From Elusimicrobiota bacterium (lineage in GTDB: Bacteria; Elusimicrobiota; Elusimicrobia; UBA1565; UBA9628): 64,000 nt of DNA. The DNA lies in contig JACQAZ010000015.1 in the NCBI GenBank assembly GCA_016194705.1, positions 4,771-68,770 of the forward strand. The letters are read 5' to 3'. The notes under the pieces are model-generated. The model saw nothing but the letters and a program-made list of their open reading frames with translations, was not told the origin of the DNA and ran no database searches. Below, in pieces: positions 10,098-41,285 of this stretch. The position numbers were made by a program, and so were the translations under genes. Each line of letters begins with the position of its first letter. Position 1 is the first letter of the stretch.

Positions 10098-12005
10098 ATG
10101 GCCTTGTCCCCCCCCGTGCGCGCGATGAGCTACACCGTGGTCCACCGCACCCGCCTCGACACCGCCTCCTGCGAGACGCAGGGGCTCGTGCGCGTGCCCT
10201 TCGAGCAGGGCCTCTTCAAGACCACGGCGGCCTCGGCGACGCTCCAGTCGGGCGTCATCGAGACGCCGGCCCCGTTCGACGACCTCGTCGGCTCGTGGAA
10301 CGCGAAGATCCCCCCGCTGGCCGGGCTCAAGATGCAGGCCCGCGTGCTCGTGGGCTCCGAATGGTCGGGATGGTTCGACTTGGCCGCGGTGGGCAAGGAC
10401 GGCTTCGAGTCGGTCGAGAAGCAGGAGAACGATTTCGGCTTCGTCGACGTCGACACCCTCAAGCTCAAGAAGCCCGCCAAGGCCTTCCGCTATCGCTTCC
10501 TGCTCTCGGCGCCCTCCCGGGCCGTCGTGCTCCGCCTGGCCGCCATGACGGTCTCCAACGCCGAGGTCCCGGACTTGGCCCCTTTCCAGCCGGGGCCGTG
10601 GGTGACCGAGCTCAAGGCGCGCCCGCGCTCGCAGACTGTCGAGCAGGAGAAATACAAGCACGACATCTGCAGCCCGACCTCGCTGTCGATGGTCCTCGAG
10701 TTCTGGGGCGACCGCCTGCCGACCGTCGAGGTCGCGGAAAGAGTCCGCGATCAGAAGACCGCCATCTTCGGGCATTGGCCCTTCAACGCGGCCGTCGCGG
10801 GCGACCTCGGCCTCGAGTCCTACGTCGCCCGGCTCGACGGCATGGAGGACCTTCAGGAAGAAATCGCCCAAGGCCGCCCCGTCGTGGTGAGCCTGACCTA
10901 CGGCGAGGGCGAACTCAAGGGCTCGCCGATCAAGAAGACCAAGGGCCATCTCCTCGTGGTCGCCGGCTTCGACTTCAAGGGCGACGTCATCGCGCTCGAC
11001 CCGGCCGCGCCGCCCGACTCCGTGCGCCGCGTCTACGACCGCAAGGAGTTCTGGAGCGCCTGGCGTCTCAAGAAGCGGGGCCTGGCTTATCTGGTCGGCC
11101 CCTTGAAGGGGCGCAAGCTGACCGTCGGCGTGCCGGTCATGGACTTGATGGCCAAGGCCCGCCAGCGCAAGAAGGTCGAGCTCGACGACCCGGAGCACCT
11201 CTCGCAGCTGCTCTACGGCGAACGCGTGACCGTGACCGCGGTCAAGGCCGGCTGGGTCCACGTTCTCGCCGACGAGCAGCTCGACTTCTTCGAGGACGAC
11301 AAGTGGGAGGGCTACCCCGGCTGGATCGACGCCGACTCCTTGATGTTCGATCCCCCGCCCAAGCCCAACGTGCTCGTGCGCACCAAGCAGGCCCTCGTCC
11401 AGCGCGGCAGCGACATGATGCTGCTCTCGGTCGGCACCCGCCTGCTGCGCGTCTCGCAGGACAAGGACGTCTCCACCCTGCGCCTCCTCGACGGCACGAC
11501 CGCCGAGATCGCCTCCGACGCGCTCACGAGCCCGCCCGAGCAGGTCAGCGACGAGAGCCGCGCGATGATCATCAAGACCTCCGAGCTCTTCCTGGGGACC
11601 TCGTACTACTGGGGCGGACGCTCGGGCGTCGAGCCCGACCTCTCGGTGGGCGTCGACTGCTCGGGCCTGGTCAGCCTCTCCTACCGCATGCACGGCATGG
11701 ACATCCCGCGCGACTCGCACGAGCAGAAGCTCAAGGCCAAGCCCATCGACAGCAAGGACATGAAGCCCGCCGACCTCGTGTTCCTGACGGAGCCCGGCGA
11801 CAACAAGCGCATCACGCATGTGATGATCTTCACGGGCGGCGACGGCGTCATCGAGAGCCGCAAGTCCTCGGGGCGCGTGCTGCGCTCGTCCTTCAAGGAA
11901 CGCTTCGGCAAGACGCTCCTCGAGATCAAGTCCGGCGACGAGGTTACCGACCTCTCCTTCTCCCGCCCCAAGAAGCGGCTGATCTACTTCGGCAGCTACT
12001 TCTAA
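10098..12005 (+). CDS. Multidomain peptidoglycan hydrolase: peptidase C39-like + SH3-like + C-terminal NlpC/P60
   Basis: C39-like segment KHDICSPTSLSMVLEFWGD. C-terminal NlpC/P60 signature GVDCSGLVSLSYRMHGMDIPRDSHEQ…ITHVMIF (Cys and His). Start taken at the ATG at 10098, after the upstream terminator. Confidence 0.8.
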   Translation: MALSPPVRAMSYTVVHRTRLDTASCETQGLVRVPFEQGLFKTTAASATLQSGVIETPAPFDDLVGSWNAKIPPLAGLKMQARVLVGSEWSGWFDLAAVGKDGFESVEKQENDFGFVDVDTLKLKKPAKAFRYRFLLSAPSRAVVLRLAAMTVSNAEVPDLAPFQPGPWVTELKARPRSQTVEQEKYKHDICSPTSLSMVLEFWGDRLPTVEVAERVRDQKTAIFGHWPFNAAVAGDLGLESYVARLDGMEDLQEEIAQGRPVVVSLTYGEGELKGSPIKKTKGHLLVVAGFDFKGDVIALDPAAPPDSVRRVYDRKEFWSAWRLKKRGLAYLVGPLKGRKLTVGVPVMDLMAKARQRKKVELDDPEHLSQLLYGERVTVTAVKAGWVHVLADEQLDFFEDDKWEGYPGWIDADSLMFDPPPKPNVLVRTKQALVQRGSDMMLLSVGTRLLRVSQDKDVSTLRLLDGTTAEIASDALTSPPEQVSDESRAMIIKTSELFLGTSYYWGGRSGVEPDLSVGVDCSGLVSLSYRMHGMDIPRDSHEQKLKAKPIDSKDMKPADLVFLTEPGDNKRITHVMIFTGGDGVIESRKSSGRVLRSSFKERFGKTLLEIKSGDEVTDLSFSRPKKRLIYFGSYF

Positions 12006-27842: not shown

Positions 27843-28504
27843 ATGACCGAAGGGAAATGCGCCTCCAAGTGCCGTCTGACCTCCTTCATGACCTCGTCGC
27901 TCGGCAAGAAATTCACGGTCGGAGCGGCCGGCTTCCTTCTCGGAGGCTTCCTAGTCGTGCACCTGGCCGGAAACCTCTTCCTCTTCGTCGGCGAGGGCGC
28001 CTTCAACCATTACGCGGAGACCCTCTCGAACAATCCGCTTCTGCCCGCCGCCGAGATCGCCTTGGCCGCGCTCTTCCTGGCGCACATCGTCTTCGCGCTG
28101 AAGGTCCGCTTCGAGAACGCCAAGGCCCGCCCCGTCGCTTACGAGGTCTACGAGGCGAAGGGCGGCCGAACGATCGGCTCCAAGAGCATGGCCGTCTCGG
28201 GAGTCCTCGTGCTTGCGTTCCTGATCATCCATCTCAAGACCTTCCGTTTCGGCGACGACAAGGACGGACTCTACAAGCTCGTAATGGAATGGTTCAAGAA
28301 TCCCTTCTATTCGGGGTTCTACGTCCTGGCCCTGGCCGGCCTCGGCCTCCATCTCTCCCACGGCTTTCAGAGCGGCTTCCAGACCTTCGGGCTCAACCAC
28401 CCGAGGTACACGCCGCTGATCAAGAAGGCCGGCCTGGTCTTCGCGGCCCTGATCTTCCTCGGCTTCGCGAGCATGCCGATCTACTTCGGCTTCCTGAGGG
28501 CTCC

Positions 28505-28508
<4 letters not shown>
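27843..28508 (+). CDS. sdhC: Succinate dehydrogenase/fumarate reductase cytochrome b subunit
   Basis: 221 aa with 5 TM helices and conserved His residues (b558 type, as in Bacillus SdhC). 4-nt overlap with sdhA. Confidence 0.8.
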
Positions 28509-30414
<1,906 letters not shown>

Positions 30415-30418
<4 letters not shown>

Positions 30419-31164
30419 ACCTGACTCTGAAGGTCTGGCGGCAGAAAGGCCCCAACGACGCGGGCAAGCTCGTCGAGTACTCCGCCCAGGGCGTCTCTCC
30501 GGACATGTCCTTTCTCGAGATGCTCGACGTGGTCAACGAGGGGCTCATCAAGAAAGGCGAGGATGCGATCGCCTTCGACTCCGACTGCCGCGAGGGCATC
30601 TGCGGCATGTGCTCCTTGGTCATCAACGGACAGCCCCACGGCCCGGAACTCGGCACCGCGACCTGCCAGCTCCACATGCGCACCTTTTCGGACGGCGACA
30701 CGATCGTCGTCGAGCCCTTCCGCGCGCGCGCCTTCCCCCCCGTCAAGGACTTGGCCGTCGACCGCTCGGCCTTCGACCGCATCATGCAGGCCGGAGGCTA
30801 CGTCTCGGTCAATACGGGCAACGCGCCGGAGGCCAACGCGAACCTCATCTCGCACCACGTCGCCGAGAAGGCGATGGACGCCGCGGCCTGCATCGGCTGC
30901 GGGGCCTGCGTCGCGGCCTGCCCCAACGCGTCTGCGATGCTCTTCGTCGCGGCCAAGGTCTCGCAGTATGCGCTGCTGCCGCAGGGCCAGCCCGAGCGCA
31001 CGCGCCGCGCTCTCAAGATGCGCGAAGCGATGGACGACGAGGGCTTCGGGAACTGCTCGAATGAGTACGCCTGCGAGGCCGCCTGCCCCAAGGAAATCAA
31101 GGTCTCGAACATCGCGCGCTTCAACCGGGAGCACCTCAAAGCCAGCGTCTGCTCCGAAGAATGA
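30415..31164 (+). CDS. sdhB: Succinate dehydrogenase iron-sulfur subunit
   Basis: 2Fe-2S motif [10 protein letters not shown], and 4Fe-4S/3Fe-4S motifs [12 protein letters not shown] and CEAACP. Confidence 0.9.
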
Positions 31165-32468
31165 CTCGGTTCCTCGCGGGCTTGCTCGCCGTCGCCTTCG
31201 CGGGCTTGATCGGCTGCGCGACGCCCCTTCAGCGCGCGGCCCAAAGGGGCGACCAGAACCGGGTCAGAGCTCTGCTCGCCGCGGGAGCCCGCAGCGACGG
31301 CGTCGCCACGAGCTCGGATTTGACCCCGCTCATGCTCGCGGCCATGCGCGGCCATATCGAGCCCATTCGCCTGCTGCTCGACAATGAAGCCAATGTCAAC
31401 GCGCAAAGCCCCGCCGGGCATACGGCGCTCTACTTTGCCGCGGTGACGGGCAGGACCGAGGTCGTCAAACTGCTGCTCGAGCGCGGCGCCGACGCGCGGG
31501 CCGTCGACCGCCGCGGCAAAGACGCCGAAGCCGCGGCGCTGAGCCGGCGTCATACCGACACGGCCGAGGTCCTCCGCAAATGGAAGGCCGAGCGCGGCGG
31601 TTCGATGAGCCCTCCCCCGGCGCGAGACTTGGCGACGGGAAGACGGACTTTCGCGGAGTCCGCGTCCTCCACGCAACGGCTCGAATCGGACATCGATTCT
31701 CCACGGCACGTCTCGCCCGAAAACCCGGACGACTTCGCCGTTGTCGTCGGCGTCGAGTCTTACGCTCATGAGCTGCCCAAGGCCGATTTCGCGGAGCGCG
31801 ACGCCGAGGCGGTCCGCCGCAACCTGATCTCCCTTGGGTATCCGTCGCGCCACGTCAAGGTGCTTACAAACGCGCTGGCCTCAAAAAGCGCGCTCCAGGC
31901 CGTCCTTGAGGATTGGCTCAAGCGCAACGTCAAGGAGGACAGCCGGGTCTTCTTTTATTTCTCCGGCCATGGCGCTCCGGACCCGACCAGCGGCAAGGCT
32001 TATCTGGTCCCGTTCGACGGCGATCCCGAATACCTCACCCGCACGGCTCTGCCTCTGGCCGAGCTTTACGCGGACCTGGACAAGCTTCCCGCCAAGCAGG
32101 TCGTCGTCGCCCTGGACTCGTGCTTCTCGGGAGCGGGCGGGCGCTCCGTTCTCGCGCACGGGGCTCGTCCTCTCGTCAACAAGATCGATGCGGCTCCGGC
32201 GGAAGCCCGAAATACCGTCGTGTTCTCGGCGGCCTCCGGCGACGAGATCACCGGCACGCTGGACGACCAGGGCCACGGCCTTTTCACCTACTATTTCCTC
32301 AAGGGCCTCGCGGGAGCGGCCGCCGACAAATCCGGACAAGTCACGGCCTCCGGGCTCAACGACTACCTCAAGCCGAAAGTGCGCGACGAAGCCAGCCTGC
32401 ACAACCGCGACCAGACGCCCCAGCTCTTCGGCGCGGCCGAAGGCCAAGTCCTTTCTACGGCCAAATGA
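31161..32468 (+). CDS. Lipoprotein with N-terminal ankyrin repeats and C-terminal caspase-like (peptidase C14) domain
   Basis: Lipobox LIGC. Ankyrin-repeat segments ([39 protein letters not shown]). Caspase His/Cys dyad contexts [10 protein letters not shown] and [13 protein letters not shown]. 4-nt overlap with sdhB. Confidence 0.75.
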
Positions 32469-33371: not shown

Positions 33372-34046
33372 ATGTGCGGACGCTATACGCAGGCCCAGAG
33401 CGTTCAAGAGCTCGCCAAGCGCTTCGGGCTGAAGCTTCCCTCTCTCGCGCTTGCGCCGCGCTACAACATAGCGCCGAACCAGGAGGCCCCGGTCGTGCTC
33501 CGGGCCGGAGCGGGCAAGGAGCTCGCCCTGCTGCGGTGGGGCCTTGTGCCCTCTTGGGCCGCGGACGCATCCATCGGAGCCAAGCTCATCAACGCTCGCG
33601 CCGAGTCCGTCATGGAGAAACCCAGCTTCAAGGGTTCCTTCAAGAGCCGCCGCTGCCTGGTGCCGGCGGACGGCTTTTACGAGTGGGCCAAGGACAAGAC
33701 TCCCTACCGGTTCTGTCTCGACTCGCAGGAGCTTTTCTCCTTCGCCGGACTCTGGGACTCCTGGGAGGCTCCCGACGGCAAGCAGCGGCGGACCTTCACG
33801 ATCATCACGACCGACGCCAGCGCCGTCGTCAAGCCCGTGCACGGGCGCATGCCCGTCATCCTCCCGACGGAAAAGGAGGATTGCTGGCTCGAGCCGAAGA
33901 CCGAGGCCGAGGTCCTCAAGGACCTTCTCGTCCCTTTCACCGCGCTCAAAGCCTTCCCCGTCTCGACGCTCGTCAATTCCGCCGCCGCGGAGGGACCCGA
34001 CTGCGCCAAGCCGGTCCCCCTTGCGCAGCCGGACTTTTGGGGATAA
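33372..34046 (+). CDS. yedK: SOS-response-associated peptidase (SRAP/YedK, DUF159)
   Basis: N-terminal MCGRY (catalytic Cys2) and conserved LVPADGFYEW. Confidence 0.85.
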   Translation: MCGRYTQAQSVQELAKRFGLKLPSLALAPRYNIAPNQEAPVVLRAGAGKELALLRWGLVPSWAADASIGAKLINARAESVMEKPSFKGSFKSRRCLVPADGFYEWAKDKTPYRFCLDSQELFSFAGLWDSWEAPDGKQRRTFTIITTDASAVVKPVHGRMPVILPTEKEDCWLEPKTEAEVLKDLLVPFTALKAFPVSTLVNSAAAEGPDCAKPVPLAQPDFWG

Positions 34047-34056
34047 CCTCTCCGCG

Positions 34057-34566
34057 ATGAGCCTAGGCCGAGCCCTCCCCGTCCTCTTGCTTCTTTCGGC
34101 CTGCGCCGAGCGCAAGGAAGACCCGATCGATTACAAGCATCCGGCGCCGCTGGCGGTCGGCCTCAGGGATCCCCAGGAGGAGGTCGACGCCGTCGTCAAA
34201 AAGGTCGAGCGCGGCGAGCTGCCCAAGATCCAGTTCGACTTCGACTCCGACGCCATCCGCATGAACTCATCCCCCACCTTGGACGCCGTCGTCGACATAC
34301 TGCTCGCCAATCCCAAGATCAAGGTCATGGTCCTCGCCCACACCTGCACGATGGGGACCGAGGTCTACAACCTCGACCTCTCGCGCCGGCGCGCCCGCTC
34401 GGTCAAGGAGTACCTCGTCAAACACGGCGTCCCGCCCCCGTCGATTCGGTACCACGGGATGGGCTACTCGGTCCCGATCGCCGACAATTCGACCAAGGAG
34501 GGCCGCGAGAAGAACCGCCGCGTCGAGTTCCGGGTGACCTTCCGCGAGTGGCCGTCGGTCTGGTAA
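34057..34566 (+). CDS. OmpA-family lipoprotein (OmpA_C-like peptidoglycan-binding domain)
   Basis: Lipobox LLLSAC. OmpA_C motifs NLDLSRRRARSVKEYL and NRRVEF. The ORF-track N-terminal extension is off-frame over yedK. Confidence 0.8.
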   Translation: MSLGRALPVLLLLSACAERKEDPIDYKHPAPLAVGLRDPQEEVDAVVKKVERGELPKIQFDFDSDAIRMNSSPTLDAVVDILLANPKIKVMVLAHTCTMGTEVYNLDLSRRRARSVKEYLVKHGVPPPSIRYHGMGYSVPIADNSTKEGREKNRRVEFRVTFREWPSVW

Positions 34567-34573
34567 AAGGAAA

Positions 34574-34600
34574 GGCCCCGGCAGGGGGGCTGCCGGGGCC
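34574..34600. terminator. Bidirectional intrinsic terminator hairpin
   Basis: GGCCCCGGCAG-GGGG-CTGCCGGGGCC perfect 11-bp stem between convergent genes (OmpA-like + and Lon-like -). Confidence 0.6.
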
Positions 34601-34618
34601 TGTGGTTACGGCAATCTT

Positions 34619-37600
34619 TTAGTTCTTCGGCGCCAAAGCCGCGGTCCTGTAGGCCTCGCCTTCCGCCTTCATCTGAGCGCGCCACTGCTGGTCGGCTTGG
34701 TCGAGCTTCTCGAGCTCGCCCAAGAGCTTCTCCGTGTCGCCGGCGTATTTCTTCTCGAGGGCTTCCTTGGCGAGCTCGACGCCGCGCTCATGCCGGGCGT
34801 AGGCCTTGACCCTCCGATTGATCTCGGCGTAGGGAACGTAGCTGAAGATCTCCTGGGCCTGGCGGACGTTGTCGACCGCGAAGATCACGAAGCGCTTCTC
34901 TCGGATCGCCTGGATGATCTCGGGCTTGAGGGTCAGCTGCGAGACGTTCGAACGCGGAATGATGACGAAGGCGCGCTCGCGGATGTTCTCCTTGACCACG
35001 AGCTGCCCGTTGTGGTTGAGCAGGTCGAAAAGGCCCTCGATCTTGTAGTTGACGCCGCCGATGGCCTGGACGTTCTCGCCGAGCTGGTCGTCGGAGCCCG
35101 TCATGGCGCCGTCCTGGCGCAGGGCCAGGCCCGCCATGCTGAGTTCGCCCAGCGAGATCTTGACGCCCGTGGCCGAATCCCCGTCGAGCCCGCCGTAGGT
35201 CTGCTCGAAGGAGTACCGCTTGAGGATGTTCTCCACGAGCTTGCCGTAGGTCTTCTCGAAGTAGCCCTGGACGTTGGCGAAGGCCTTGTCCATGCTGTGG
35301 CCGGTCGATTTCGCCGCCTGATCGTTGGAGACGACGCCGCCGCCTTTCGAGGACTGCGATTCGACGAAGGTCACGCGCGCGGGAGCCCCGAAATCGCCCA
35401 TGACGACGAGGCCGTTGACCTCGTTGTACTTCATCCCCTTCGTGTTGATCACGAAGGTCCTCTTCTCGAGAAGCTCCATGTAGCGCTTTTGGCGCTGGCT
35501 CGTGCTGTCCTTGCGGTCGTCGAGCGCGGTCTGGACGTCCTCGCGCCTGACGTCCTTGCGGCCCGCGTTCTTGGCGACGCGGCTGGCCTCGCGCATGAGG
35601 TTGTAGATGCTGCCGAATTGGGCCGTGAACTTCTCGTTGCTCTCGGCCTCCGATGAGGCGTACTCGAGCACGGCGCCCATGGCGTCGCGGTTGAAGTCCA
35701 TCACCAGGCCCGCGCCCTTGACCGCCATCTTCTTCATGAACTGGACGTAGGCGGAGACGGTGTCGGGGTTGATGTCGAGCTCGTGGACGAACTCGGCCGC
35801 GGCGTTGAAGCCGCGCTGGAAGTCCTCTTCGTAGTGCAAGAGGAGCATCTTGATGTAGGGCGAGCCGATCAGCACGATCTTGGGCCGGTGAGCGACATGA
35901 TAGTTGCCGGTCATCGCGGCGAAGCCGAACATCCCCTGCACCTCGGGAATCTCGGCCTGGCCGGTGCGCACGAGCTCCATGACGGCGTGCCAGGCTCCGG
36001 GCTGGCGCAGGAGATCCATGACGTTCATCACGATCACGTCGGCCTCGAGGATCGAGCCGGTCTTGATCGTGGGACCCCCGGGACTCAGGGTCTTGAGCGC
36101 CACGCCGTTGATGATGCGCGTGTCGCGATTGGGCTCGACGAGACCGAAGAGCTTCTCCAAGGTCGGCTTGTCCTCGAAGACGACGCGCCAGCCCTTCGCG
36201 CCGTTGCTGGCGCGCAGGAGGTTGATGCGGTAGTGATCCAGCGGATCCTGCCTGCCGATCGTGCCCTCGTCGCGGGCTCCGGGCAGGAAAGACTCGAAGT
36301 CGGCGACCGCGTGCTTGAGCAGAGCCTGGGCGTAGCCCATGGCCTTCTTCTCTTCGTCGGTCGGGGCCGGGTCGTTGGCGTGCAGGGCCTTGTGCTCCTT
36401 GTCGAGCTCTTGAGACAAGACGCCGAATTTCTTGATCAACGGGGTGGCGGCCTTGATGACGTCCTTGATGAGGTCCTGCGAGAGCGCGCCCGACTGCTGC
36501 GCGGCCGCGAGTTCCTCGGGGGTCATGGGGACCATTTTGCCGTCGACTTCGTGCGAGATGCCGATGCTGCCGGTCTGCAGCGATCTCTCGTCGATCAGGA
36601 TGCCGTAGCCCCGGACCTTGACCGCCGCGATCTCGGCGAGGACGGCCTGTTGGCGCTGAGCCGCGCTCTTCTCCCAGGCCCTGTGCTCCAGGGTGTCGTG
36701 GCGGTTGGGCATCACGGAGGCGGCGACCTTGCGGCCGATTTGGGAGACCAGCATGCCTGCGATCTCCTGGTACATCTTCTGGTAGGCCACCATCTTCTCG
36801 GCGCGGTTCTCCGAGACCATCGCGCGGAAATCGTCCATGTAGGGCTCGGCCGCGGCCTTCGCCGCGCCCAGCGCCGCGTTCCACTCCTCCATCGTGAAGA
36901 CGCCCTTCTTGACGAGCTCCGCGAGTTCTTCCTCGGAGGCGGCCGTCTTCATAACGAGCTCTTTGCGGATCGCGCCGAATTTCTGGGCCAAGGGGGTGGC
37001 GGCCTTGACGAGCTCGGTGAGGACCTCCTCGGTCAGCTCGCCGGCCGCCTGCTTCTCGGCCATGACCTCCGGGGTCATCGGCACCGCCTTCCCGTCGACC
37101 TCGTGGGTCAGGGCGACGTTGCCCGCCTCATCGATCGAGATGCCGAAGCCTTTGACTTTGACGGCGGCGATCTCGGCGCGGACGGCGTCCAGCCGCGCTT
37201 TGAGCTCGGGGGACGCCTCCGAATAGGTCAAGGCCACTCCGAAATTGAAGTGCTCTCCGTCGCCGGCGTCCTCGGGACGAATCTTGATCCCGAACTTGCC
37301 GACGCGCTGCTGCGAGACCTCCGCCTCGAACTTGGCCTGGCGTTCCGCCGCCGATTTGGCGAGCTCCGCGTTGACGCCGCGCTTGAGCTCCTTGGCTTGG
37401 TCCGAATTGAGGGCCTGGGGGAACGCGGCCTGGTAGGTGCGCACGAATTCCTTGACCGCGCCGGCAAGCCTCGCCGCCGAGCCCGGGTTGAGCTTGAGGA
37501 AGATCGTCTTCTCCGGATCGTTGAAGTTGGTCGCCGCGACGAGGTCGGGCGACGACGGCATCTTCGGGGCGATTTCCGCGAGGATGGCCCTCAGCGCGGT

Positions 37601-38458
37601 CTCGCGCCCGGAGCCGTCCGCTCCCGAAATGTAAAGGTTGTAGTAGGGTCCCGCCATCTCGAGGCCCGCGCGGATCGACTTGAGGGCCTTGTCCTGGCCC
37701 ACGATGTCGACTCCTGAGAGTTCGACCTTGCGCGTGCTGTCGGGCAGCTGGTTGAGGTCGGGGGTGTAGCGGGCCTTGTCCACCGGCACGGCCAAGGACT
37801 CGACGTCCATCAGGGTTGTCTTGGACGCGGGCGGCGAGGCCTTGCCGTTGAGCCGCTTGCGCAGGAAATTGGGGATCAACTTGGAGCCCGAGAGCCGTTC
37901 CCAGACCGTCGCCGCCGCCGCCGGACCGGCGGCGTCGCCGCCGTCGTAGGTCTTTTCGAGAGCCGGTCCCATGCCGTTTCCGGCGGGTCCAGCGGCGACC
38001 GCGGCCGCCATGTTGAGGATGTTTTGCTTGGCCGTACCTTCCGGCAGCACCTCAGCCGCCGCGATCCACTGGGCGGCGTCCTGCTGTCCCGAGAGGGTCG
38101 TGGGCATGGTGATGCCCTTGGCCTGCATTTGGTTGAGGATCTCGATGACGGGGCGGGAGACCAGAGCCTGGCGTCCGGGTGCGTCGGCGCCCTGCGCGGG
38201 AACGGCCTGCGCGGCGGGATCGATCTGGACCAGCGTTCCGGCGTTGTTGAAGGCCGACGGGGCCGGCTCCATCGGGATGGTGATCGTGCCGAGATGCATG
38301 ACTCCCGGTTGGGCGATGTTGAAGACCGGCTGGGCTATCTTGATCCCCGCGGAGGTCTCGTTGAGGTTCGCCGCTAGCGCGGGACTCGGAAGGAAAATCG
38401 AAAGGGAGACGGCGGCGGCGAGAAATCGAGTTGCGGCGGCGCGCATGGAGGGGGTCAT
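34619..38458 (-). CDS. Secreted Lon-like S16-family peptidase (LonC-like, degenerate Walker A) with an internal tandem-duplicated ~85-aa module
   Basis: Start at MTPSM, preceded by AAGGAG with an 8-nt spacer. Signal peptide AATRFLAAAVSLSIFLPSPALA. Degenerate P-loop YISGADGSGRET. Lon protease-domain entry NEVNGLVVMGDFGAPARVTFVE, catalytic-Ser context DGDSATG and Lys context YKIEG. Duplicated segment AEIAAVKV(K/R)G(F/Y)GI…HEVDGK.VPMTPE…KAATPL..KFG. Confidence 0.75.
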   Translation of the reverse strand: MTPSMRAAATRFLAAAVSLSIFLPSPALAANLNETSAGIKIAQPVFNIAQPGVMHLGTITIPMEPAPSAFNNAGTLVQIDPAAQAVPAQGADAPGRQALVSRPVIEILNQMQAKGITMPTTLSGQQDAAQWIAAAEVLPEGTAKQNILNMAAAVAAGPAGNGMGPALEKTYDGGDAAGPAAAATVWERLSGSKLIPNFLRKRLNGKASPPASKTTLMDVESLAVPVDKARYTPDLNQLPDSTRKVELSGVDIVGQDKALKSIRAGLEMAGPYYNLYISGADGSGRETALRAILAEIAPKMPSSPDLVAATNFNDPEKTIFLKLNPGSAARLAGAVKEFVRTYQAAFPQALNSDQAKELKRGVNAELAKSAAERQAKFEAEVSQQRVGKFGIKIRPEDAGDGEHFNFGVALTYSEASPELKARLDAVRAEIAAVKVKGFGISIDEAGNVALTHEVDGKAVPMTPEVMAEKQAAGELTEEVLTELVKAATPLAQKFGAIRKELVMKTAASEEELAELVKKGVFTMEEWNAALGAAKAAAEPYMDDFRAMVSENRAEKMVAYQKMYQEIAGMLVSQIGRKVAASVMPNRHDTLEHRAWEKSAAQRQQAVLAEIAAVKVRGYGILIDERSLQTGSIGISHEVDGKMVPMTPEELAAAQQSGALSQDLIKDVIKAATPLIKKFGVLSQELDKEHKALHANDPAPTDEEKKAMGYAQALLKHAVADFESFLPGARDEGTIGRQDPLDHYRINLLRASNGAKGWRVVFEDKPTLEKLFGLVEPNRDTRIINGVALKTLSPGGPTIKTGSILEADVIVMNVMDLLRQPGAWHAVMELVRTGQAEIPEVQGMFGFAAMTGNYHVAHRPKIVLIGSPYIKMLLLHYEEDFQRGFNAAAEFVHELDINPDTVSAYVQFMKKMAVKGAGLVMDFNRDAMGAVLEYASSEAESNEKFTAQFGSIYNLMREASRVAKNAGRKDVRREDVQTALDDRKDSTSQRQKRYMELLEKRTFVINTKGMKYNEVNGLVVMGDFGAPARVTFVESQSSKGGGVVSNDQAAKSTGHSMDKAFANVQGYFEKTYGKLVENILKRYSFEQTYGGLDGDSATGVKISLGELSMAGLALRQDGAMTGSDDQLGENVQAIGGVNYKIEGLFDLLNHNGQLVVKENIRERAFVIIPRSNVSQLTLKPEIIQAIREKRFVIFAVDNVRQAQEIFSYVPYAEINRRVKAYARHERGVELAKEALEKKYAGDTEKLLGELEKLDQADQQWRAQMKAEGEAYRTAALAPKN
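36421..37200. repeat. Intragenic tandem duplication (two ~230-bp copies at 36421-36650 and 36973-37192)
   Basis: Copy alignment: cgccgaatttct.gg…ggtggcggccttga.gagct… / …ccgtcgac.tcgtg…atgccg.agcc…ttgac.gc.gcgatctcggcg.ggacggc. Encodes the repeated protein module of the Lon-like gene. Confidence 0.6.
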
Positions 38459-38619
38459 GCTCTGTCTCCTTAGATATCGATCGATGTCGTACAAGCTGAG
38501 GGTCCCATTATAAAGGAATGGGGCCTAGCACAAGAGGGCCATATGGGACCGCGATAGGAAGTAAAACGCCCTAGGTCCGGTTAGGACCTAGGGCCTATGA
38601 AAGGGCTGGGAAGTCCGGT

Positions 38620-39192
38620 TTAGTTGCTGCGGAAGACCACGGCAAGAGCGGTCGGATCCTCGTTGTTTGCGGCGTAAGCGTTGAGCTCGGAGGACTCGAT
38701 CTGGCCGCCGGGGATGAAGTAGAGCCCCCGCTGCGCGCCGACCTTGACCTCGCCGTCCTGGATCATCGCCTGGAACACGAGGCTGGGAAGCCCCACGTCC
38801 TGCGGGTCCAGGCCGACGGCCTTGGCGAAATCCTTCTCGGGGATGCGGCACTCGGCGACGACCGAGATGCCCTTGTTGTAGAGGAAGTTGACGTTGGCCA
38901 TCAGGGGCTGGCTGCCCTTGGCCTTGCAGGTGTAGCTCCAAGTCTTGCCGTCGCGCTTGACGATGTGCACGGTGAGCTTGGATTCCCGGGAGAGGGTCCG
39001 CCCGCCCTGGTCGAGGCCGAAATCGAAGTCGACCGAGTAGTTTCGCCAACCGTACTTATCGGCGAACTCGATGCGGTTCTGGGAGCCCAAAGGGGGCATG
39101 AAGTCCCCCGCGTCCTTGAGCTCGTACTTCTCCGCGAAGCTCGAGGCCGGCAGGAGCAAAAGCATGGCAAGCATGGACAGTCTCATGATCAT
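38620..39192 (-). CDS. Secreted hypothetical protein
   Basis: Start at MIMRLSMLAMLLLLPASSFA (signal peptide). 191 aa with no recognised domain. Confidence 0.55.
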   Translation of the reverse strand: MIMRLSMLAMLLLLPASSFAEKYELKDAGDFMPPLGSQNRIEFADKYGWRNYSVDFDFGLDQGGRTLSRESKLTVHIVKRDGKTWSYTCKAKGSQPLMANVNFLYNKGISVVAECRIPEKDFAKAVGLDPQDVGLPSLVFQAMIQDGEVKVGAQRGLYFIPGGQIESSELNAYAANNEDPTALAVVFRSN

Positions 39193-39316
39193 ACCCTCCA
39201 GACTCACATTGTACGCCGAATCCGGCTGCGCCGCAGGGGTCGTTGGGGTCCAGCGAAGCTGGGTCATAAGGCCTATGTCTCTCACACCCCCAGTTTAACC
39301 GGAGCGTGTTACAGGG

Positions 39317-39784
39317 TTATTGCAGGCTGCGCAGGGCCGCGTAGAGTGCTATCCCGGCGGCGGTCGAGAGGTTCAATGAACGCGCCTGCGCCTCCATCGG
39401 GATGCGGTACAAACGGTCCTGATGGCGGCTCAGCAGGGCCTCGGGCAGACCCCCGGATTCCTTGCCGAAAACCAGGTAGCTGTTCTGGCGGTACGGGGCG
39501 TCCCAGAAGCACTTCTTCGCCGCGCCGGAAAAGAACAGCAGCGAGGCGCGCGGGGGGAGGCCCCTCTCGAAGGCCGCGAAGTCCTCGTGCCGGACGAGCT
39601 TGAGCTGCGGCCAATAATCCAGCCCCGAGCGCTTGAGCCGACGCTCGCTCAAAGAGAAGCCGAGCCGGCCGACCAGGTGTAGAGCGGCTCCCGCCGCGAC
39701 GCAGGTCCGGCCGATGTTGCCCGTGTTCCACGGGATCTCCGGCTCGACCAGCACGACGCTTAAGGGCACGCCTCTGTTTACCAT
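39317..39784 (-). CDS. trmL: tRNA (cytidine/uridine-2'-O)-methyltransferase, SpoU family
   Basis: 155 aa. SPOUT motifs EPEIPWNTGNIGRTC and LVFGKESGGLP. Confidence 0.85.
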   Translation of the reverse strand: MVNRGVPLSVVLVEPEIPWNTGNIGRTCVAAGAALHLVGRLGFSLSERRLKRSGLDYWPQLKLVRHEDFAAFERGLPPRASLLFFSGAAKKCFWDAPYRQNSYLVFGKESGGLPEALLSRHQDRLYRIPMEAQARSLNLSTAAGIALYAALRSLQ

Positions 39785-39815: not shown

Positions 39816-41285
39816 GTGACAGACAAGAGACAACGCCAGCTCGAGGCCGACGCCAAGGACCTGCACCAGTTCGGCTACGCCCAGCAGCTCCTGCGCGACA
39901 TGGGAGGCTTCGCCAACTTCGCGGTCTCCTTCACGATCATCTCGATCCTCACGGGCGCGATCACGCTCTACGGCACGGGCCTCACCATGGGCGGGCCCTT
40001 GGTCAACGGACTGGGCTGGCCGCTCGTGACGGTCTTCACGATGCTCGTGGCCGCGTCTATGGCCGAGATCGCCTCGAAGATCCCGACGGCCGGCGCGATG
40101 TACCACTGGTCCTCTTTGCTCGGCGGGCCCGGCTGGGGCTGGTTCACGGCCTGGTTCAACCTCGTCGGCCAGGTCGCGACGACCGCCGGCATCGACTACG
40201 CGATCGCGCTCTTCATGGCCGACCTGGTGGGCCTGCAGGGCCAGACCGCGCTGCTGACGATCTACGCCTTGCTGCTGGTCAGCCACGGTCTGATCAACCA
40301 CTTCGGCGTCCGCCTCGTGGCCGCCTTCAACGATTTGAGCGTCTGGTACCACATCGCCGTCACCTTGGCTGTGGCTGTCGCCTTCTGGTTCTTCGCGCCG
40401 CGCCGGCCCTTGTCCTTCGCGTTCAAATCCGGCTTCACGACCACGCCGTATCCATACCCCTGGGCGTTTCTGCTGGGCCTTCTCCAGGCGCAATGGACTC
40501 TGACCGGCTACGACGCCTCGGCCCATATCACCGAGGAGACCATGGACCCGCGGCGCAACGCCTCGTGGGGCATGTTCAACGCCGTCTGGATCTCGGGCGT
40601 CTTCGGCTACCTCCTGGTCCTGGCCGTGACCTTGGCCATCCAGGACCTACCGGCCGCGGCCGCCGCGCCCAACCCCTTCATCTTTATCGCGCAGACGGCC
40701 CTGGGTCCCGCCTTCGGCAAGGGCCTGACCTGGGCCATCCTGCCCGCGATGTGGTTCTGCGGCCTGTCCTCGGTCACGACCAACGCGCGGATGATCTTCG
40801 CCTTCTCGCGCGACAAGGGCCTGCCCGGGCACGCGCGATGGGCGACCGTGGACCCGAAGCACCGCTCTCCGGTGGCGGCGGTGTGGCTCGCCGTGGCGCT
40901 GGCCTTCGGCGTCGCCGTCTACGCCAAGGGCTTCACCGTGATCACCTCGCTCTCGGTGATCGGGCTCTACGTCTCCTACGCGATCCCGATCGGGCTCGTC
41001 CTGCGCGCGCGCGCGCGCAAGGGCTGGAGAGACCTCGGGCCCTGGAACCTCGGCTCGTGGGGCGGCCTCGTCAACGGCGTTGCGGTGGCCTGGATCGCCT
41101 TCATCACCGTGCTCTTCGTCGCCCCGCCCAACGAGCTCACGGGCTACACCTTCGCCGGGCTTCTCGTCTTCCTGGCGGTCTATTACTTCGCCCGCGTACG
41201 CGGCAAGTTCAAGGGACCAAAGAAGATCGGCACCGAGGAAGAGCTCATGCGCATGGAGAAGGCCCTCGATAAGTCGTCCGCCTGA
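39816..41285 (+). CDS. Amino-acid/polyamine/organocation (APC) family permease
   Basis: 489 aa with ~12 TM helices and an APC-like layout. Confidence 0.8.
   Translation: MTDKRQRQLEADAKDLHQFGYAQQLLRDMGGFANFAVSFTIISILTGAITLYGTGLTMGGPLVNGLGWPLVTVFTMLVAASMAEIASKIPTAGAMYHWSSLLGGPGWGWFTAWFNLVGQVATTAGIDYAIALFMADLVGLQGQTALLTIYALLLVSHGLINHFGVRLVAAFNDLSVWYHIAVTLAVAVAFWFFAPRRPLSFAFKSGFTTTPYPYPWAFLLGLLQAQWTLTGYDASAHITEETMDPRRNASWGMFNAVWISGVFGYLLVLAVTLAIQDLPAAAAAPNPFIFIAQTALGPAFGKGLTWAILPAMWFCGLSSVTTNARMIFAFSRDKGLPGHARWATVDPKHRSPVAAVWLAVALAFGVAVYAKGFTVITSLSVIGLYVSYAIPIGLVLRARARKGWRDLGPWNLGSWGGLVNGVAVAWIAFITVLFVAPPNELTGYTFAGLLVFLAVYYFARVRGKFKGPKKIGTEEELMRMEKALDKSSA

Follow-up and report, generated by a model that had tools for sequence, protein, structure and literature searches.

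A predicted periplasmic LonC-type protease with multiplied hook modules in Elusimicrobiota

Can a Lon-type protease work outside the cytoplasm? Because they need ATP, Lon proteases and AAA+-derived ring machines in general are assigned to the cytoplasm or the matrix, and the question is raised by a gene from an Elusimicrobiota bacterium (assembly GCA_016194705.1, contig JACQAZ010000015.1, positions 4,771 to 68,770). This whole stretch of 64,000 nucleotides is called the window hereafter. The gene is located on its minus strand and had been described in a first-pass annotation, made from the sequence, as coding for an exported LonC-like S16 protease. The analysis presented here favours, with moderate confidence, a periplasmic, ATP-independent chambered protease or chaperone, that is, a Lon of the LonC type that would have acquired a Sec signal peptide.

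Family assignment and ATPase motifs

The coding sequence and the parts of the LonC core identified in it are the following:

34619..38458, minus strand: coding sequence of the predicted exported LonC-type protease, 1279 amino acids (aa), stop codon at 34619-34621 (open reading frame list and translation)
37424..37813, minus strand: start of the LonC core, with the N-terminal segment and the first part of the AAA-like α/β subdomain; aligns with LonC of Meiothermus taiwanensis (MtaLonC) and with ordinary LonC-like proteins
37598..37624, minus strand: degenerate P-loop GADGSGRET, residues 279-287
35789..36193, minus strand: second part of the AAA-like α/β subdomain, residues 756-890; Pfam AAA_32, E 4.4e-15
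35510..35695, minus strand: AAA lid (α) subdomain, residues 922-983; Pfam LonB_AAA-LID, E 1.1e-16
34814..35458, minus strand: Lon (S16) protease domain, residues 1001-1215; Ser1095 at 35174-35176, Lys1139 at 35042-35044

On every sequence-level criterion tested, the window protein is of the LonC type. Its closest sequence relative in the PDB is MtaLonC/TTC1975 (4FWD and others), with an E value of 1e-31 over residues 738-1209, and the second match is the LonB of Thermococcus. The motifs DGDS(1095)AT and GGVNYK(1139)IEG, already read as a Lon proteolytic domain in the first-pass annotation, align with the catalytic Ser582 and Lys625 of MtaLonC; the Ser1095/Lys1139 dyad is invariant in the alignment of the 37 full-length members of the clade described below. 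The residue preceding Ser1095 is Asp and not Pro, which is the LonB/LonC state (PMC9569914). LonC proteins are defined by two insertions in the protease domain together with degenerate AAA+ motifs (Liao et al. 2012, PMC3391209), insertion 1 corresponding to the α3-β9 loop (consensus CX3GLX(G/E)) and insertion 2 to helix α5 (consensus φX2Aφ). The first reads AKARGLTG, AKSRGLDG or CKSRGLTG in clade members; the second is IIQAI in the window protein, aligned with VLEAV of MtaLonC. The assignment as a LonC-like S16 protease is borne out by these insertions, by the dyad and by the match to MtaLonC in sequence and fold.

The fold was compared with an AlphaFold2 model of residues 216-1279, built from a 75-sequence alignment, with a mean predicted local distance difference test score (pLDDT) of 87 and a predicted template-modelling score (pTM) of 0.68. 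Foldseek placed first the full-length MtaLonC structures solved by cryo-EM, 8K91 and 8K8V (E ~2e-33; template-modelling score, TM, 0.74-0.76, target-normalised), followed by LonB and then by LonA. As regards the Pfam domains expected from the first reading, AAA_32 was found together with LonB_AAA-LID, and LonC_helical gave a weak, sub-threshold match at residues 310-338; Lon_C was not found in the window protein, even with E values up to 1 allowed. The protease domain was assigned by means of TIGR00764, the PDB matches and the fold comparison, and not by Lon_C; TIGR00764 (LonB) covers residues 898-1180, far under its own cut-off.

Other identities were considered and rejected. LonB was discarded on the absence of an internal transmembrane segment and on the degenerate Walker motifs. 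For BrxL of the BREX systems, PADLOC gave no match (only a sub-threshold one to Cmr3, taken as noise), the neighbours are housekeeping and envelope genes, and the BrxL structures were weak in the Foldseek comparison (TM 0.13-0.22). A PDZ-Lon_C protein of the SepM/YlbL type was discarded since the window protein has no detectable PDZ domain and contains the AAA_32 and lid domains.

The AAA-like module is degenerate and, judging from its motifs, almost certainly does not hydrolyse ATP. Walker A is GADGSGRET, as first read, with Arg for Lys and Glu for Ser/Thr, and where hhhhDE is expected at Walker B the sequence is VIVMNV, lacking both Asp and Glu; no intact Walker A or B emerged from the alignment. 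The change of Lys to Arg had been taken as the mark of LonC-like enzymes, and this part had to be abandoned: MtaLonC keeps the Lys in its Walker A, GPPSLGKHE (PMC3391209), and ordinary LonC-like proteins present a mixture of GTGK, GTGR and GTSR. The LonC-specific insertions and the missing Walker B Asp-Glu pair are stronger evidence for LonC than this substitution.

In the clade the P-loop is near-invariant, G-x-[D/E]-G-[S/T]-G-R-E-T, with Lys in one member (P0003). It is more conserved than in the cytoplasmic LonC-like proteins, though the compartment predicted for the clade is without ATP. The P-loop of MtaLonC no longer recognises nucleotide and still binds phosphate, as observed by cryo-EM (PMC13069640), and the most economical reading of the clade P-loop would be a phosphate or anion site that supports assembly.

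The clade and its export signal

The clade was delimited by searching 1.84 billion cluster representatives exhaustively with HMMER and a 3-sequence profile, counting clusters at 50% identity. Among the 5944 matches obtained, the top ~35 representatives, of 980-1241 aa, matched end-to-end with 750-1590 bits, followed by a sharp drop to the ordinary LonC-like proteins of ~800 aa, at <=505 bits. Word-index searches with the full protein and with a 6-sequence profile returned 6 proteins and understated the family; Ala-rich words probably swamped the candidates. The long form amounted to 39 sequences, 37 of them full length, leaving out P0134 (an N-terminally truncated call) and P0165 (a probable gene-call fusion). 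The latter is a distant relative of 1502 aa, with the LonC core placed between a membrane or peptidase-like part at the N-terminus and a multi-pass membrane part at the C-terminus, and may be either a real fusion or the product of merged gene calls.

All named long-form members belong to Elusimicrobia/Elusimicrobiota. With one genome per GTDB species, the long form was identified in two loci only (L005 and L006), both from metagenome-assembled genomes (MAGs) of Elusimicrobia; the other 78 best loci carry ordinary LonC-like genes of 2.2-2.4 kb from many bacterial phyla and some archaea. The window gene is a member of a clade of ~35 clusters, seemingly confined to Elusimicrobiota, whose proteins are labelled in databases as "AAA family ATPase", "ATP-binding protein", "predicted ATP-dependent protease" or "hypothetical protein". 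A literature search turned up no account of an exported Lon that carries an AAA-like module, and what is new is the group itself, undescribed so far: a LonC clade with a new predicted location and an enlarged putative substrate-binding basket.

The elements at the 5' end of the gene are the following:

38466..38471, minus strand: ribosome-binding site AAGGAG, 7 nt 5' of the ATG (direct sequence reading)
38372..38458, minus strand: signal peptide of Sec/signal peptidase I type, residues 1-29, predicted cleavage ALA/AN (the slash marks the cut)
38159..38371, minus strand: Ala/Pro/Gly-rich linker, predicted disordered, residues 30-100; pLDDT <50 at residues 31-100; poorly conserved

The coding sequence begins with the ATG at 38458-38456, inside a longest open reading frame that runs from the first TTG (34619-38494, minus strand). 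It was corrected from 1280 to 1279 aa, and the interval first annotated (34619-38619) comprises it together with a 160-bp spacer upstream. The ATG at 38458 is the likely start because AAGGAG, the strong ribosome-binding site of the first reading, lies 7 nt upstream and because P0001 and P0002 begin at the same Met. P0001 is an NCBI protein from an Elusimicrobia MAG, identical to the window translation; P0002, 72% identical overall to the window protein (73% over the full alignment), conserves the N-terminus, so that a true start downstream is unlikely.

The N-terminus, MTPSMRAAATRFLAAAVSLSIFLPSPALA/ANLNE, has an n-region with Arg6 and Arg11, a Pro-Ser-Pro break and Ala-Leu-Ala at -3 to -1. The h-region is FLAAAVSLSIFL, of 12-13 residues, followed by PSPALA/A, and constitutes the sole hydrophobic segment of the protein, with no other 19-residue span of mean hydropathy >1.6. 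The signal peptide was called with our own heuristics, based on the anatomy of the n-, h- and c-regions and on conservation in the clade. Its tripartite anatomy, described as clean in the first-pass annotation, is conserved clade-wide: the 37 full-length members all contain an N-terminal hydrophobic segment (11-residue Kyte-Doolittle mean 2.0-3.3) behind a net-positive n-region, the h-regions have 10-14 residues, and an AxA-like site is present in most members (LSA/Q, AFA/Q, ALA/Q). Export by Tat was rejected as unlikely, most members carrying KK, RK or a single Arg/Lys and not a twin-arginine motif. Given this Sec-type signal peptide, the best reading of the window protein is a location that is most likely extracytoplasmic (periplasmic).

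An N-terminal hydrophobic segment of this type was identified in none of 229 ordinary LonC-like proteins, and thus separates the clade perfectly from them. The two groups also differ in cysteine, which numbers 0-2 per ~1150 residues in the clade (0.044%, none in 21 of the 37 members) and a median of 6 per ~800 residues in the ordinary proteins (0.746%), a depletion of ~17-fold that is consistent with an oxidising compartment. Together with flanking genes that encode exported proteins, these features speak against an ordinary cytoplasmic LonC, possibly associated peripherally with the membrane, in which the hydrophobic stretch would not be a functional export signal. This is the least probable of the readings weighed here, even if the strong conservation of the P-loop would make more sense where nucleotides or phosphate are abundant and published descriptions of LonC are of soluble, cytoplasmic proteins (PMC9569914). 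The predicted exported location is unusual for a Lon, as first proposed, precisely because that source places LonA and LonC as soluble enzymes in the cytoplasm. This trait of the known LonC members is descriptive and not part of their structural definition, and the clade departs from it with a signal peptide in 37/37 members and its depletion in Cys.

The linker directly after the hydrophobic segment is long, disordered and poorly conserved, and its ~70 residues could act as a leash if the segment stayed uncleaved. The protein would then be held by a type II signal anchor on the outer face of the cytoplasmic membrane, with its bulk still outward given the net-positive n-region of every member, and would survey proteins emerging from Sec. 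We regard this arrangement as rather improbable: h-regions of 10-14 residues are too short for a stable transmembrane helix, and the Pro/Gly break with small residues at -3/-1 (ALA/A, LSA/Q, AFA/Q) in most members is the anatomy of a cleaved signal.

The helical-hairpin extension and the proposed mechanism

The middle of the protein is occupied by an expanded form of the helical-hairpin extension (HHE) of LonC, made up of the following parts:

36224..37423, minus strand: expanded HHE inserted in the AAA-like domain, residues 346-745; three helix/β-hairpin hook/helix modules
37223..37357, minus strand: HHE module A, first half, residues 368-412; positions 2-42 of the module hidden Markov model (HMM), E 5e-07; the canonical LonC hook aligns here
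36956..37201, minus strand: HHE module B, third copy nested in module A, residues 420-501; HMM positions 5-91, E 2e-16
36794..36943, minus strand: HHE module A, second half, residues 506-555; HMM positions 46-95, E 5e-10
36359..36673, minus strand: HHE module C, residues 596-700; HMM positions 1-106, E 5e-30; in nearly all clade members

The intragenic duplication reported in the first-pass annotation is real. Residues 421-503 against 601-687 gave a Smith-Waterman score of 243, and shuffles (n=300) gave 35 +/- 6 with a maximum of 64; the copies are 54% identical in amino acids and 69% identical over 249 aligned nucleotides, with 82% in the best 60-nt stretch. In the DNA they lie at 36950-37198 and 36398-36658, enclosing the shorter spans first delimited (36973-37192 and 36421-36650). 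A substrate-gating domain had been envisaged for the repeated unit, which is instead the known LonC HHE with its β-hairpin hook, already in two copies in the clade. In ordinary LonC proteins the HHE sits between the P-loop and the remainder of the AAA-like domain and ends in a hydrophobic β-hairpin hook. The expanded region can be aligned with this HHE, and the canonical hook GF-x-strand-G-strand-P..DG....EE aligns with window residues ~385-420. The AlphaFold2 model has β-hairpins at residues 389-412, 438-460 and 618-644 between long helices, a helix/β-hairpin/helix order found three times at a pLDDT of ~70-90.

With the module HMM, built from module C (the second repeat), nearly all clade members contain two full modules of ~105 residues, A and C, with A at E 1e-08 to 1e-27 in most of them. 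Three modules were identified in the window protein and P0002 only, B being nested between the halves of A, and one weak match at the HHE position was obtained in 136 of 228 ordinary LonC-like proteins. Module B is far closer to C than to A and is therefore read as a copy of C inserted into the hook of A. The duplication had been proposed as recent, which does not hold: P0002 carries module B at the same nested place, with orthologous B copies only 48% identical, which places the insertion before the divergence of two lineages that are 72% identical today. That B and C are more alike within the window gene may be due to relaxed constraint in P0002 or to some gene conversion.

Two further parts are added to the LonC core:

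37985..38158, minus strand: clade-specific three-helix mini-domain, residues ~101-158; AlphaFold2 helices at 103-113, 125-137 and 142-156, pLDDT 74-90
34622..34813, minus strand: C-terminal helical hairpin tail, residues 1216-1279; AlphaFold2 helices at model residues 995-1022 and 1027-1060

The mini-domain is characterised by the motif HPVI..LN.LQ..G..LP...DA..L.AAA.LPEG.A, conserved across the clade, and had no match in Pfam or NCBIfam. A second AlphaFold2 run, of residues 1-345 with 34 sequences, modelled the signal peptide as a helix and predicted further disorder at 160-177, ahead of the LonC core. The C-terminal tail is limited to the sub-clade of the window protein; P0005 and P0006 lack it.

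The HHEs of MtaLonC build a basket over its ring, and the hooks and HHE act in substrate recognition and chaperone activity (PMC13069640). For the window protein, the precursor would be exported via Sec and cut by signal peptidase I after Ala29, and the mature subunits of ~1250 aa would come together in the periplasm as a ring of six or seven, joined by the AAA-like and protease domains as in Meiothermus LonC. No ATP would be used, the Walker B Asp-Glu being lost and the Walker A Lys replaced by Arg; the P-loop probably binds only phosphate or another anion. The enlarged HHE would form the basket above the ring, with three hook modules per subunit versus one in ordinary LonC. Exposed hydrophobic stretches of unfolded envelope proteins could be caught by the hooks and then either held, as by a chaperone, or fed to the Ser1095-Lys1139 sites of the chamber for proteolysis. 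The enzyme would thus serve the quality control of envelope proteins, in a role similar to that of DegP.

Gene neighbourhood and comparison with known systems

The elements flanking the Lon gene are the following:

34057..34566, plus strand: OmpA-family peptidoglycan-binding lipoprotein, 169 aa, downstream of and convergent with the Lon gene; PF00691, E 7.6e-22; lipobox LLSAC
34573..34601, minus strand: terminator-like hairpin 3' of the Lon gene, directly after its stop; 12-bp stem, T-rich tail
38568..38594, minus strand: terminator-like hairpin of the upstream neighbour gene, between the small exported-protein gene and the Lon gene
38620..39192, minus strand: small exported protein of no known family, 190 aa, directly upstream of the Lon gene on the same strand; signal peptide, two conserved Cys

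Both neighbours agree with the lipoprotein and the secreted hypothetical protein first described. The best NCBIfam matches of the former are OmpA-like and peptidoglycan-anchoring lipoprotein families, the top two being YiaD and PA1041; the latter had no match in a Pfam, NCBIfam, PADLOC or PDB profile search. The Lon gene looks like a transcription unit of its own because terminator-like hairpins lie on both sides; a scan of 34000-39500 found no sigma-70-type promoter. The G+C content is 60-70% across the whole window, with no compositional break at the gene.

Seven loci with the long form were compared, and an OmpA-like homologue is near the Lon gene in 6 of them. The small gene is located directly upstream on the same strand in 5 (the window, L001, L004, L002 and L006) and is absent from L003 and L005. 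The small protein of L001 carries a lipoprotein-type signal (LAGC). This recurring neighbourhood suggests a functional link with the Lon gene, and one version of it is a protease dedicated to processing the small upstream protein, or regulated by it, in place of general quality control. Conservation across distance speaks for such a partner, the Lon proteins of L002 and L006 being only ~35% identical to that of the window and the other genes called in L002, the locus read for gene content, being different. Even so, a dedicated partner is very unlikely: two loci lack the small gene, a terminator-like hairpin separates both genes in the window, the match of the small protein to no known family leaves no function tied to it, and the characterised LonC is a general degrader of unfolded proteins.

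Farther upstream, ~1.4 kb from the Lon gene, lies an amino-acid permease gene (39816-41285), which would fit a protein that is released from the cell, either by an additional secretion step or within outer-membrane vesicles, and feeds the cell by digesting proteins of the environment in place of quality control. The signal peptide is compatible with this fate, and ATP-independent LonC degrades unfolded proteins processively (PMC3391209). We consider it quite unlikely, since a chambered protease that takes only unfolded chains is ill suited to nutrition, the conserved neighbours encode envelope proteins, and no type II/IX secretion signal or C-terminal sorting domain was detected in the Pfam scan.

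The remaining neighbours are on the plus strand. Genes for the flavoprotein and iron-sulfur subunits of a succinate dehydrogenase/fumarate reductase (27794-31164) are syntenic with L001 and L004, so the region is read as ordinary chromosome and not as a mobile element. They are followed, between sdhB and a gene with an RF-1 domain, by a gene at 31161-32468 with a lipoprotein-type signal (LIGC), ankyrin repeats and a caspase (Peptidase_C14) domain; it is missing from the syntenic L001 and L004 and appears to be an exported caspase-like protease gained by insertion in this lineage. The gene at 33372-34046, for an SOS-response-associated peptidase (SRAP), immediately precedes the OmpA-like gene; L001 has one more gene, of 402 aa and without Pfam match (10401-11609), between the two.

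DegP/HtrA proteins are ATP-independent, oligomeric, cage-forming serine proteases of the periplasm and also chaperones for unfolded envelope proteins. A bolder form of the periplasmic reading, offered tentatively, is that a LonC cage of six or seven subunits, bearing 12-18 hydrophobic hooks or more, is the main ATP-free envelope protease-chaperone of Elusimicrobiota, filling or supplementing the role of DegP, near the peptidoglycan-bound OmpA-like lipoprotein and working with the small exported protein as its adaptor, inhibitor or substrate. It would be, to our knowledge, the first AAA-type ring machine shown to work outside the cytoplasm.

Several observations weigh against the periplasmic LonC reading. 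Pfam Lon_C does not reach threshold on the window protein and is matched by distant clade members only, and insertion 1 of the window sub-clade has 7 additional residues and no longer keeps the consensus (LNHNGQLVVKENIRERA). The hydrophobic segment could stay as an uncleaved anchor, and a near-invariant P-loop is unexpected in a compartment free of ATP. The export of a subunit of 1279 aa and its assembly in the periplasm to a complex of ~0.8 MDa are so far hypothetical steps. Finally, neighbourhood conservation may in part be plain synteny of related Elusimicrobiota, with hairpins separating the genes.

If the reading is true, the loss of ATP dependence in LonC let a whole chambered machine move to an ATP-free compartment. 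It would also add a new class to the few periplasmic quality-control proteases and give a testable function to ~35 protein clusters in a poorly studied phylum; the series of one, two and three hook modules would be a natural test of substrate capture by the basket.

A precedent for an exported S16 domain exists in the SepM/YlbL-type proteases of Firmicutes, which comprise a membrane anchor, PDZ and Lon_C and are extracytoplasmic and ATP-free. We know of no other extracytoplasmic Lon-type domains than these PDZ-Lon_C proteins. They differ from the window protein, in which their PDZ domain was not detected, in having neither an AAA-like ring module nor HHE; the PDZ-Lon_C architecture has been noted before (PMC2605481). 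DegP/HtrA is an analogue in role only, without homology, having a trypsin-like S1 fold with PDZ domains and a Ser-His-Asp triad.

Archaeal LonB (Thermococcus onnurineus, PDB 3K1J), the second-best structural match, shares AAA_32, the lid and a protease domain of B/C type. It differs in its intact Walker motifs, its ATP dependence and the transmembrane helices inserted in its AAA domain, with the catalytic parts cytoplasmic, whereas the window protein is without internal hydrophobic segment. The ordinary proteins of ~800 aa, annotated as "Lon protease family protein" or "lon-related putative ATP-dependent protease" and composed of AAA_32, LonB_AAA-LID, Lon_C and LonC_helical, are 28-33% identical over the C-terminal 470 residues. 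They share the Arg variants of the P-loop, a Walker B without Asp-Glu and one homologous HHE hook module, and differ in the lack of signal peptide (0/229), the single HHE module, the median of 6 Cys and their presence in many phyla.

The closest system is LonC itself (MEROPS S16.007), represented by Meiothermus taiwanensis LonC and Thermus thermophilus TTC1975 (PDB 4FW9, 4FWD, 8K8V and 8K91). The core domain order is the same in both, an AAA-like α/β subdomain with inserted HHE, the lid and the Lon protease domain, and they share the Ser-Lys dyad with the preceding Asp, the two protease insertions and a degenerate Walker B. Compared with MtaLonC, the clade has GxDGSGRET for GPPSLGKHE as Walker A, and the window protein has 7 more residues in protease insertion 1 and the added C-terminal helical hairpin. 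Compared with LonC in general, the window protein adds a Sec signal peptide and an extension of ~185 residues (linker and three-helix mini-domain), with almost no Cys; its HHE, doubled in the clade and tripled in this gene, reaches an insertion of ~400 residues versus roughly 120-200 in ordinary LonC.

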